64,000 bases of DNA from Octopus sinensis. Its lineage: Eukaryota. The stretch lies in the NCBI RefSeq assembly GCF_006345805.1, contig NC_043016.1:26350001-26414000 (forward strand). The letters run 5' to 3'. Below are positions 2,301 through 45,363 of this stretch, piece by piece; within the stretch, counting starts at the first letter, position 1; each line of letters starts with the position of its first letter. A program made the position numbers and the translations under genes. The notes under the pieces are model-generated. The model made no database searches. It saw only the letters and a list, made by a program, of their open reading frames with translations, and had not been told where the DNA came from.

Positions 2301-3540
2301 TTGGAACGCAAACATTCATTTTAGCAATATATTCTTTATTCTTATTGCTTTATTGCTAAGCATTACTTCCTTACTCTTTTACTTACTGACACAAAATTTC
2401 ATGGCATTTTACCTCATAACTTTTCTTCTGCTAATTTTTGTTCAATGCGACTAATGACTCTGAATTCCTCATACATTTTTCTATCATTTAAGCCTAAGAA
2501 AAGTATTCTTTTATTTTAAAATGAAAAAGTTTATGTTAATTGAGGGTGAATAGGAACCTTACTGTCCCCCTACTTAAGGTCACAGATATTTTGATGTAAC
2601 TTTTTTTCTACTGAATCAAATCTCAAACTATTTATGCCAAAGTGTAGCTGAGGAGGTGTCCTCTTTAAAACTATTAACAGTTTGCAATTTAGTTGAGAAC
2701 TGAATTAGTGGTGAAGCTTGGGAGCTGCTGCGATTGACAAAATGGTTGACTTAAGAATATATTCAACCACCACCATGGTTGAATAATATATATATATATA
2801 TAAATATATATATATTACTTATATTATAACGTGATTGATCACCATGCATTCTTATCCAAGTAAGGTTATACTTATCTTTTTGATGCGGCTCTACTCTCTA
2901 CTGTTTTATCTCTCATTCTTTCCCTAATTCCCTTTTTCTCCCCTTCACCGTTTTCTATCTATTTCTTTTTCTCTCTCTCACTCTTTCTCTCTTTCTCTCT
3001 GTCATTGCTCACACGTGACCATCGTGCATCTTTCTCATCCTCATGTGATCATCTTTCTTTTCTTTCAGAACTGTCTTGAGTTGAGGACAGCATATTTCCT
3101 ATCTCTCTCTTCTACCTTTTCTCATATCAAAGAAAATATTTCTCCAGCGTTCGCTATTTTACCCTCGTTCTGGTCCTTTTTTTGTTCCAAACTTTGAAGC
3201 TCCATAAATTTTATTTTGGTAGTTATGGGAGCAACTGTCATCAAAGGCTCATATTGTCATTCAATGCACAAAATGAGGAGCAGATAGACAGCCGACATCT
3301 GATGAAGGGTTGTTCTATATATTATTTTGATCTGTTCTCTCGCTCCATGCGTTTGAACTTGTTTGCATTCCTGTTTCATGTTGTTTACTGTGGTGACATC
3401 CTGTACCCATATATGCATATGTATATAATATATATATATATATATATAGATATATATATATATATATATATATGTAGGTCCCGGGTTGATCCGGGGTTAA
3501 CCACAGTAAGTAAGGTACTCAATACATAGCAGAGTAAAAT

Positions 3541-3614
3541 TAATTTATTATATAGAAGGAGCTTCTACAGGACTAGTACTAGTCCTGTAGAAGCTCCTTC
3601 TATATAATAAATTA
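3541..3614. repeat. Perfect 74 bp palindrome
   Basis: 3541-3577 is the exact reverse complement of 3578-3614, with no loop. Confidence 0.95.
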
Positions 3615-3629
3615 TATAATAAATAAATA

Positions 3630-3676
<47 letters not shown>

Positions 3677-3696
3677 TATACATATACATATATATA

Positions 3697-4117
3697 GGCG
3701 CAGGAGTGGCTGTGTGGTAAGTAGCTTGCTAACCAACCACATGGTTCTGGGTTCAGTCCCACAGCGTGGCATCTTGGGCAAGTGTCTTCTGCTATAGCCC
3801 CGGCCGACCAATGCTTGTGAGTGGATTTGGTAGACGGAAACTGAAAGAAGACCGTATTGTCGTATATATGTGTATATATATAAGTGTGTGTGTGTATATG
3901 TTTTGTGTGTGTGTGTTGTCCCCCTAGCATTGCTTGACAACCGATGCTGGTGTTTTTACGTCCCCGTCACTTAGCGGTTCGGCAAAAGAGACCGATATAA
4001 TAAGTACTGGGCTTACAAAGATAAGTCCCGGGGTCGATTTGCTCGACTAAAGGTGGTGCTCCAGCATGGCCGCAGTCAAATGACTGAAACAAGTAAAAGA
4101 GTAAAGAGTAAAAGAGT
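3697..4117 (+). mobile_element. tRNA-derived SINE, family A, full length
   Basis: GGCGCAGGAGTGGCTGTGTGG head, B box GGTTCAGTCC, tail CCAGCATGGCCGCAGTCAAATGACTGAAACAAGTAAAAGAG repeats. Confidence 0.9.
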
Positions 4118-43312: not shown

Positions 43313-43313
<1 letters not shown>

Positions 43314-43645
43314 CATATCATCATCATCATCCATCGTTTAACGTCCATTTTCCATGCTAGCATGGGTTGGACGGTTCAAATGGGGTCTGGCAAGCCCGAA
43401 GGCTGCACCAGGCCAGTCAGATCTGGCAGTGTGTTCTACAGCTGGATGCCCTTCCTAATGCCAACCACTCGAGAGTTAGTAGGGTGATTTATGTGCCACC
43501 GACACATGTGCCAGACGAGGCTGGCAGACGGTCACGCTCGAATGGTGTTTTTTTTATGTGCCACCGACACAGGTGCCAGACGAGGCTGGCAGACGGCCAC
43601 GCTCGGATGGTGTTTTTTATGTGCCACCGACACAGGTACCAGACG
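43313..43645 (-). mobile_element. RTE 3' UTR, or RTE-tailed SINE fragment
   Basis: Matches 11260-11413 (GGTTGGC.TTAGGAAGGGCATCCAGCTGTAG; GACGTTAAA+(GAT)n); internal ~63 bp tandem. Confidence 0.75.
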
Positions 43646-43810
43646 AACACATATACATATATACATATATATATATATACATAGACATATGTACATATAT
43701 ATAATATATGTGTGTGTGTGCGTGTGTGTGTTTGGTGTATGTATGTATGTATGTGTATATGTATATTTATATATGTATATAAAATATATATGTATATATA
43801 TATATACATA

Positions 43811-44660
43811 CAGGGTGCAATGAGTAAATTGTCGCCATTCTATATTTATAATTTCGCGCATGCACTTTGTTTTTGATTTTGTCGACTACACAGTATAGTA
43901 GGGTCAGTTGGGCACCGTCTGTGAGAAAAAACAGCACCATGACGTTATTCACTCTGCCAGGAATTTGGAAACCACATGCTGTCCGCCGGCATTCAGAGTG
44001 TTTGGGTGTCAATCTGAGGACAGTACAATCTGAAGACATGTACTGAGAGTGATAAAAATCAAACATCCAATCAACATCATAGTGTTTGGAGTAATTACTA
44101 GTGTTGGAGACGTTATACCTCCATCCATCTTCCCACACGGCTTCAGACTTAACACGGAGGCCTACATCAAGTGTCTGGAGGAGGTAGTGCTGCCCTGGGT
44201 CAAGAGGGTGGCTATTGGAAGACCCTCTGTCTAGCAACAGGACTCCACACCATGCCACACAAGGAGGAGAACCCAGTCATGGGTGTCAGACAATTTCTGC
44301 GACCACACCACCCCCAACATCTGGTCACCTAAGTCCCCAGACTGTAACCCCCTTGATTATTATATGTGGGGTGCAATTGAGTGAGAAATCAACAAAACTT
44401 CTTGTAACACCAAAGATGAACTGAAGGCAAGGATTATGGCAGCATTCACCAACCTAAACAAAGATACTGTCCAGAAGAATTGCAGGAGATTCCGAAGTCA
44501 TCCGGAGGCCGTGGTTGAAACCAATGGCAATTATATTGACTAAATTTGCTCTTTAATATTTCAAAATATTTTAATGTAATATTCGTAAATATATCTGCTA
44601 AAAGGAGATGCGTTATTTTTCATTTTGCGTAATTTGACGACAATATATTCACCGCACCTA
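43811..44660 (+). mobile_element. Internally deleted maT (DD37D) Tc1/mariner element
   Basis: TA+CAGGGTGC TIR; QQD-x37-D spacing counted through WSPKSPDCNPLDYY; in-frame stops. Confidence 0.88.
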
Positions 44661-44689
44661 TATATATATATATATATATTATATATAAA

Positions 44690-45363
44690 TATAGAGAGTT
44701 AACGTTAAGTGGCTAACTCCAGTGCTAGAAATAGCTCCTTATTCTGGTATAGCCACCCCGAAGTTGTTCCACAGAAGAATAACATTACCTTCCAATGTAG
44801 GGAAGCGAAATACAACGAAAGTAGATTAATACTGAACAATTGTTTCTTTATTAACATAATATGCAATTATACTCACATATTTGTCTATAATTCATCAGCA
44901 GTATTTGTATATGATACAATTTATCAGACCCACACGGGCGATAAAATACCCATGCGGTCTGATCGATTGCATACATAGTTGTGGTTTAGCTTCCCGCCAA
45001 AAGCATGCTAAGACTCCGTGGAAACCAATACCGCATACAATACTTGCTGCAGCATACTTATTTTATAAATTCATAAATGAGGGTGAAAAATTAGATATTA
45101 ATTTAATAATACCGTCAGTTTAACACCAAGTGGCCTAGCACATAGAAACCAGGGAGACAGTACAAATTTATACATAAATATAAGAGAGTTAACGTTAAGT
45201 GGCTAACTCTAGTGCTAGAAATAGCTCCTTATTCTGGTATAGCCACCGAAGTTGTTTCCACAGAAGAAATAACATTACCTTCAAGGTAAGGGAAGCGAAA
45301 TACAACGAAAAGATAGATTAATACTGAACAATTGTTTCTTTATCAACATAATATGCAATTATA
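44690..45363 (-). mobile_element. Non-coding 490 bp unit in partial tandem (1.4 copies) within (TA)n; retrozyme-like or non-autonomous Penelope-like
   Basis: 44694-44872 repeated at 45184-45363; contains an HHR and several hairpins. Confidence 0.8.
44828..44905 (-). ncRNA. Candidate minimal type I hammerhead, intact core
   Basis: AAUACUG-CUGAUGA-A.UUAU...AUAA.A-GAAAC-AAUU-GUU-CAGUAUU: perfect 7 bp stem I, palindromic tetraloop. Confidence 0.8.

Follow-up and report, generated by a model that had tools for sequence, protein, structure and literature searches.

A 64-kb window of the Octopus sinensis genome (64,000 nucleotides; RefSeq assembly GCF_006345805.1, contig NC_043016.1, positions 26,350,001 to 26,414,000 of the forward strand; coordinates below are those of the window) contains eight hammerhead ribozyme-like sites. 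Six of them (group 1) are conventional type-I hammerheads, and two (group 2), a tandem array called family A and a repeat end called element B, are non-circularly permuted, with their blocks in the order cleavage site (S), GAAA (G), CUGANGA (C). Two groups of Penelope-like elements (PLEs) that insert at (TA)n microsatellites probably left these sites, as decayed 3' ends and as non-coding derivatives; group 2 carries a layout named split-SGC here and is tied, by its architecture, to the Naiad PLEs. Group 2 is the only novel part of the window, and it points to Naiad as the partner clade.

Element B and the parts of its predicted ribozyme are as follows.

40185..40695, plus strand: element B, a U-rich non-coding repeat end with (TA)n on its 3' side at about 40695-40720
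40458..40621, plus strand: split-SGC hammerhead of element B, with a closing helix (40458-69/40607-21) and a hairpin (40471-40533)
40534-39/40565-70: stem II
40538-43/40588-93: helix linking stems I and II
40547-53/40574-80: stem III
40555-60/40593-98: stem I
40552-54: AUC site, predicted to be cut after 40554
40571: GAAA block
40599: CUGAAGA block

Pairing is complete in stem III (7/7), stem I (6/6), stem II (6/6), the linking helix (6/6) and the hairpin (10/10), and all core nucleotides are present together with an NUH site (AUC). On a split-SGC descriptor, element B scores 58; none of 100 shuffles of the window reached 50, and the maximum among 147 viral control loci was 42. Element B is repeated at high copy in the sequencing runs of four organisms (521-2853 matching contigs per run), where depth is highest on its core and the S, G and C blocks have no listed change of 5% or more. 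A near-universal consensus change at 40617 restores a pair of the closing helix, and position 7 varies freely among the relatives. A type II (GSC) reading of element B was rejected, as its candidate stem I is unpaired at the first position.

The type-SGC hammerhead has been shown to cleave and was found in metatranscriptomes and in no genome of a known organism, according to Eckert et al. (2023, PMC10085705). Family A and element B resemble it in the S-G-C order, the core nucleotides, the short linker between stems I and II, and the helix that joins the outer ends of these stems. They differ in lying in animal genomic DNA within retroelement-type repeats, in that their cleavage is predicted from sequence, and in lacking one defining feature of the type, an unbroken block C: theirs is split at A9/10.1 by an extra closing helix and a hairpin. 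The six possible permutation layouts were derived on the assumption that core blocks cannot be split (Eckert et al. 2023, PMC10085705).

Family A has the same layout in sequence unrelated to element B.

2810..6803, plus strand: head-to-tail array of a non-coding unit of about 620-770 nt, with TA-rich spacers
About 2810-3430, 4170-4845, 4860-5625 and 5640-6330, plus strand: four full copies
6480-6803, plus strand: 5' half of a fifth copy
3197..3310, plus strand: split-SGC motif of copy 1, with site block at 3248, G block at 3270 (G12 changed to A) and CUGAUGA at 3299
4592..4711, plus strand: split-SGC motif of copy 2, with site block at 4649 (position 17 is G), GAAA at 4671 and core at 4700 (G8 changed to A)
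5370..5494, plus strand: split-SGC motif of copy 3, with site block at 5432 (position 17 is G), GAAA at 5454 and CUGAUGA at 5483
6088..6195, plus strand: split-SGC motif of copy 4, in which a 12-nt deletion removes a stem I strand, with GAAA at 6155 and CUGAUGA at 6184

The copies are 78-84% identical, all five share one 5' boundary, and their consensus pairs in every helix of the split-SGC set, including 6/6 in the linking helix. Alternatively or additionally, family A might be cut, in GCS order, at another site block that follows CUGAUGA by about 90 nt. Stem III of that arrangement pairs 6/6 in all four copies and stem I 4-5/5, and a relaxed descriptor of all six block orders, which caught only two of the four copies, placed both in GCS order (scores of 25-26), preferring the downstream block. 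Cleavage there is nevertheless distinctly unlikely, for the sequence is U-rich and its pairing depends on G-U pairs, two of the four copies have G at position 17, and no counterpart was seen in element B, whereas the upstream block is arranged as in the other families. Position 17 is a mixture of A and G (3379, 4790, 5575, 6272) in the two candidate site blocks alike, which could reflect either decay or adenosine-to-inosine editing of the template. The first spacer of the array contains a short interspersed element (SINE) and, between two (TA)n tracts, a perfect 74-nt palindrome (3541-3614).

The split-SGC fold was also found in metagenomes, with a pattern that specified the words of the core, purine/pyrimidine classes and a linker of short length, and placed no demand on helix pairing. 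At least 120 loci matched it, and among the loci listed, 92 matches belong to one large family, while L149 and L221 represent two further unrelated families with the same fold; 57 of the 120 listed loci have split-SGC scores of at least 45. Across the five families (A, B, the large family, L149 and L221), the pairs number 25/25 in stem I, 20/20 in stem III and 20/20 in split stem II, counts that were matched by one, two and two of 120 strand permutations, respectively, and that are generous because pairing was a criterion in choosing the families and the upstream stem II strand. Most columns of stems I and III covary, with two or three pair types each. In element B and the outside families, 4-5 nt link the strand of stem I to that of stem II.

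Stem II of element B can be formed in two ways: as 4 bp with the strand after CUGAAGA, or as 6 bp with an upstream strand flush to G12. The upstream strand lies immediately 5' of the linking helix, and the strand after A9 then pairs before the hairpin. If the first option were the functional one, family A and element B would be ordinary, intact type-SGC hammerheads whose stem II comes from the strand right after CUGANGA, with the upstream pairing as an off-switch. A direct stem II of 4 bp with one or two unpaired bases is indeed possible in element B and in the family A consensus; however, its length across the five families is 4, 4, 1, 1 and 2 bp, whereas in 5/5 the upstream strand pairs flush to G12, starting with a G-C pair. 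Relatives of element B, moreover, vary at 40606, 40610 and 40613, and some forms lack the strand after CUGANGA. We therefore give the intact form little credence and retain the split layout.

The tie to Naiad comes from outside the window. In six metagenome loci (L186, L200, L204, L209, L210 and L221), the end of a Naiad-type reverse transcriptase (RT) lies upstream of the fold on the same strand; in L221 the upstream frame has 604 codons. Among nine full-length homologues of this RT that were scanned, five have an N-terminal GIY-YIG domain, and CxC and DKA motifs are present. An open reading frame (ORF) with the Naiad combination of N-terminal GIY-YIG, CxC, DKA and C-terminal RT was found only for outside loci with the same fold, a Naiad profile giving no match in the window. 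L149, with a perfect split-SGC fold at 1600-1760, has no RT match within 1.6 kb upstream and is a candidate non-autonomous carrier. In the large outside family the 3' end is fixed and the 5' ends are ragged, and only the longest copies retain RT remnants; this 3' end lies 110-130 nt beyond the predicted site, which was thus copied uncut.

Naiads have been described as lacking canonical hammerheads, with some elements, including those of octopus and squid, flagged as 'HHR_core' or 'HHR_half_core', and octopus Naiads as targeting (TA)n (Craig et al. 2021, PMC8557442). When the last 330-420 nt of 53 of the 54 Naiad consensus sequences in File S5 of that paper were examined by eye, with no control set, the split-SGC layout was seen in seven (Bfor, Amil, Aacu, Anas, Movir-2, Obim and Ovul), representing four independent lineages, and in Esco without a good stem II. 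Another six, all from nematodes (Nbra-1, -2, -3, Hcon, Hpol and Asuum), have textbook type CSG. CUGANGA, GAAA, A15.1-U16.1 and a non-G position 17 are retained in these ends. The 'missing' hammerhead of Naiads is thus probably explained by permuted layouts. The published Naiads resemble our repeats in their (TA)n preference, partial tandems and inverted copies and in showing the same fold, by eye, in ctenophore, coral, box-jelly and octopus 3' ends; they differ in that the paper assigns the half cores no fold and in that the window has no Naiad coding sequence (Craig et al. 2021, PMC8557442). The type-CSG examples of Eckert et al. (2023, PMC10085705) came from soil DNA, which would fit a nematode source, although this is a guess. 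In the literature searched, where subscription journals are thinly covered, no paper linking Naiads to permuted hammerheads was found, and in the main text of an octopus repeat annotation (PMC13282606) the words 'ribozyme' and 'Naiad' do not occur in the part drawn on. Among the other File S5 sequences, bivalve and hemichordate 3' ends have a different conserved motif in common, and arthropod Naiads contain CUGACGA. Five 10-mers from family A and element B had no match in the published octopus Naiad 3' ends, a comparison at the level of 10-mers. The motif in the 3' end of Naiad-1_Movir is what we take to be twister-like.

The following mechanism is proposed for group 2. In the predicted fold, stem III closes a loop of about 20 nt, the 5' half of which pairs with the strand just before CUGANGA to form stem I and the 3' half with the upstream strand to form stem II, and a fourth helix connects these two stems at their outer ends, a feature shared with Eckert's type SGC. 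The chain is opened between A9 and 10.1, both of its ends being held by the extra helix beside the hairpin, and the core is complete only once the last block has been transcribed. A helix extruded at this step is plausible, since PLE hammerheads often have an unpaired base at A9/10.1 (Cervera & de la Peña 2014, PMC4209133) and hammerhead helix II can be reduced to a linker with some activity left. The RNA, as a monomer or a head-to-tail dimer, would cut after the NUH triplet (40554 in element B), and its likely role would be to reduce tandem transcripts to single units. Uncut or rejoined RNA would be copied into nicked (TA)n by the Naiad RT/GIY-YIG protein, and family A would be mobilised in trans. 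Copies that extend past the site in both directions show that their template was uncut or rejoined.

Several points weigh against this interpretation. The self-cleavage of group 2 RNAs is a prediction. Each of the four family A copies is damaged, and two of the three that retain position 17 have a G there. In a monomer of element B, the linking helix appears not to be long enough to span the distance to the far end of stem III. The same puzzle has been noted for some SGC RNAs (Eckert et al. 2023, PMC10085705); a head-to-tail dimer would solve it, paralleling the dimer-only stem III of group 1, and we regard monomer and dimer as about equally probable. Minimum free energy folds of element B give stem III, the linking helix and the hairpin, pseudoknots not being representable in such folds, and for three of the four family A copies these folds differ. 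The comparison of sequencing runs kept contigs at least 80% alike and weighted them by depth, both of which favour a picture of conservation. Element B and the published Naiad ends served as models for the metagenome pattern, and the outside families were selected from loci that had passed the descriptor. The stem II partner taken is the best-matching strand within a range of 37 nt, and an identical 4-nt stem II occurs in element B and the large outside family. Neither layout was seen in the displayed part of 39 of the 53 Naiad ends. A Naiad profile search of the 64-kb window found no coding remnant beside family A or element B, so that their link to Naiad is one of architecture and not of sequence.

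Some of these observations would also suit a hammerhead-derived fold that no longer cuts and instead serves the Naiad protein as a signal for binding or priming. Eckert et al. (2023, PMC10085705) assumed that the block broken by the A9/10.1 split must remain whole; the large outside family was copied with its site uncut; and for the Poseidon PLE, cleavage depends on protein, and insertion in vitro does not require cleavage. Family A often has G at position 17, which is unfavourable for a hammerhead. On the other hand, CUGANGA, GAAA, A15.1-U16.1 and a non-G position 17 are kept in element B, where no search pattern fixed them, as well as in Naiad ends, and position 7 is free to vary among the relatives of element B. 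Loss of cutting is thus unlikely, and an active split-SGC ribozyme is preferred.

The six group 1 sites are type-I hammerheads of the published PLE kind, with palindromic stem III.

9665..10040, minus strand: type-I PLE-type element with CCGAUGA (U4C) at 9886, a 68-nt stem II and a near-palindromic stem III; GUC site, predicted cut after 9797; (TA)n at 9627-9662 on the 3' side
29090..29460, minus strand: type-I element between two (TA)n tracts, with CUGACGA at 29396, U.U at 10.1-11.1 and palindromic stem III; AUA site, predicted cut after 29352
29525..29807, minus strand: fold-back (head-to-head) element in which the minus arm has a full type-I motif (CCGGUGA at 29641, A.A at 10.1-11.1; GUA site, predicted cut after 29569) and the plus arm is truncated (CCGAUGA at 29784)
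40722..41136, no single strand: fold-back element with CUGACGA at 41015, a long stem II, G12 changed to A and palindromic stem III on the plus arm (GUC site, predicted cut after 41092); the minus arm has an intact GAAA at 40942, lacks CUGANGA and runs into (TA)n
44695..45360, minus strand: non-coding unit of about 490 nt with a 179-nt partial upstream repeat (93%) and (TA)n on both sides; type-I hammerhead with CUGAUGA at 44898, A.A at 10.1-11.1 and palindromic stem III; GUU site, predicted cut after 44835
55030..55148, plus strand: type-I hammerhead with CUGAGGA at 55036 and U.U at 10.1-11.1; GUA site, predicted cut after 55111; abuts (TA)n at 55149

The layout CUGANGA, stem II, GAAA, palindrome, UH with an open stem I is present at all six sites, with single core changes at 9.8, 29.6 and 41.0 kb; stem I has 4-7 bp and the stem II region 23-68 nt. 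The stem III segment is self-complementary at five of the six sites and nearly so at the sixth; the palindrome would form stem III only when two copies pair. PLE terminal repeats bear such type-I motifs, and thousands of solitary copies probably work as dimers (Cervera & de la Peña 2014, PMC4209133). Group 1 shares with these published hammerheads its type, its palindromic stem III, the predominance of solitary truncated copies and the many unrelated families per genome; it differs in that stem II reaches 45-68 nt at five sites and in that four sites lack the G10.1-C11.1 pair called highly conserved in that paper. The targeting of (TA)n, partial tandems and inverted truncated copies are published PLE traits (Craig et al. 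2021, PMC8557442), and the fold-backs at 29.6 and 41.0 kb, with their head-to-head arms, and the 44.8-kb element, with its 179-nt partial repeat, agree with them. Neither Pfam on 300 of 600 ORFs nor the Naiad profile found a PLE ORF in the window that would place group 1 within a pseudo-long terminal repeat (pLTR) of an RT/GIY-YIG element.

Every one of the seven places at which the original prediction had reported hammerhead-like motifs was re-found by descriptor, alignment or hand annotation, and the site at 55.0 kb (core at 55036, plus strand) had been overlooked. Its details also hold: U4C occurs at 9.8 and 29.6 kb, the 10.1-11.1 mismatch at 29.35, 29.6 and 44.8 kb (and additionally at 55.0 kb), permuted order at 2.8-6.8 and 40.46-40.62 kb, and the elements share no similarity at E<0.01. 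Its notion of one system does not, as the sites fall into two classes. A dinucleotide-shuffle control (60 local shuffles), as the prediction had proposed, gave 7 matches in the window with scores of at least 28 on the relaxed six-order descriptor against 0.62 per shuffle; type-I order accounted for 5 matches against 0.13, and compact SGC order, at scores of at least 30, for one match against none. This descriptor missed the 9.8-kb motif, whose stem III is imperfect, so that this site and the array copies that it missed or misordered were annotated by alignment and hand. Relaxed descriptors occasionally score 32-37 in shuffles, as would be expected if the motifs were chance matches in AT-rich, repeat-rich DNA. 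At the level of the window this explanation is refuted by counts far above the shuffles, on the relaxed descriptor as on a stricter version of it, and it is left with a negligible probability: the palindromic stem III at five type-I sites, and nearly so at the sixth, was not demanded by the descriptor, and both stems I and II form in none of 65 viral-contig matches to the pattern of element B.

The viral-contig scans produced no credible candidates. Those 65 matches look like chance, as do the 36 of a second scan, the best of which falls in apparent coding sequence, and the 147 loci of a third, none scoring above 42 on the split-SGC descriptor. In Rfam, no hammerhead appeared among the 150 listed of 187 matches for the window, the rows listed being microRNA matches driven by microsatellites only.

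The association with (TA)n is real and not exclusive, since several other repeats touch TA tracts as well. Of the 12 cores or arms, 10 have (TA)5 or longer within 320 nt on their 3' side; at random places the fraction is 0.17, in a null model that excludes a 2.2-kb degenerate (TA/CA)n satellite at 12131-14312. Element B and three of the four family A copies are inserted at (TA)n, and other copies of element B in the sequencing runs likewise run into TA. The association claimed by the original prediction stands as enrichment over random places and is not exclusive to these elements: TA tracts are touched by 4 of 12 SINE pieces and by two other repeats in 2/4 and 2/2 copies, with two more repeats showing contact in 0/6 and 0/3.

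The further proposal of a Penelope-dependent radiation of at least seven non-autonomous families holds in part. A PLE origin is well supported by traits that match Cervera & de la Peña (2014) and Craig et al. (2021); group 1 and hammerhead repeats at (TA)n are, however, already published biology and not a new system. The absence of an autonomous partner from the window was borne out: a Naiad profile search found no match, and Pfam, applied to 300 of the 600 ORFs that are not of low complexity and the sole probe for canonical PLEs with a C-terminal endonuclease, found domains of long interspersed element (LINE)-type RT/endonuclease and of mariner and none of PLEs. 'Non-autonomous' is supported for only two of the eight elements, family A and the 44.7-45.4-kb element, which look like discrete non-coding units. 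The single-copy elements at 9.8, 29.35, 29.6, 41.0 and 55.0 kb and element B may instead be 5'-truncated ends of autonomous PLEs, a view compatible with our explanation to which we assign somewhat less than an even chance. These elements are short, with 3' ends at (TA)n, and two have head-to-head inversions as drawn for PLEs; towards the 5' end of element B, depth drops by a factor of about a thousand, and the large outside family is equally ragged at its 5' ends, with RT in its longest copies only. No coding remnant, however, was found upstream of any of them in these searches, and family A and the 44.8-kb element, for their part, have defined non-coding units.

Animal retrozymes have been argued to be non-autonomous PLE derivatives (Li, Clavereau & Pollet 2026 preprint, 10.64898/2026.07.22.740005). 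Like the non-LTR (long terminal repeat) retrozymes (Cervera & de la Peña 2020, PMC7229834; Li et al. 2026), family A and the 44.8-kb element are tandem non-coding units with one hammerhead each. The published retrozymes have type-I hammerheads, as does the 44.8-kb element, in units of 150-450 bp, whereas family A has a permuted motif in a unit of about 700 bp.

The window as a whole is AT-rich animal DNA in which microsatellites and SINEs are dense, as are DNA transposons and decayed LINEs. The LINEs include a tandem pair of decayed copies (17263-19591 and 20281-22572, 72% identical) with endonuclease and RT domains, and further RT sequence lies at 23291-24236. The decayed DNA transposons comprise a mariner remnant at 769-1459 (Pfam HTH_48 and Transposase_1), an element at 45420-47500 that we take to be hAT-like, and a piece at 43810-44660 that we take to be Tc1-like. 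At 37254-38145, inverted arms of about 280 nt (87%) flank a TTAGGG-like array (37572-37759) in a structure resembling a miniature inverted-repeat transposable element (MITE), and an arm fragment recurs at 2036-2184. Another repeat of about 280 nt forms inverted pairs at 11412-12162 and 27549-27957, once bordered by (TA)n and a second repeat; its head-to-head geometry resembles PLE fold-backs, and a hammerhead core was not scored there.

We lean slightly towards a wider view, in which Naiad-type PLEs across animals bear hammerheads that were missed because they are permuted. On this view, nematode elements have type CSG, and those of cnidarians, ctenophores and cephalopods have the split layout, which would be active, perhaps dimer-gated, present at high copy in this genome and used by non-coding, retrozyme-like passengers such as family A. 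If true, this would place permuted hammerheads, so far environmental rarities with no known host, in animal genomes at high copy, add a layout outside Eckert's list of six, and explain why the abundant Naiad clade seemed to have no ribozyme. The split-SGC RNAs are short and have a predicted cut position, and their pattern offers a means of searching for repeats that current descriptors and Rfam miss.

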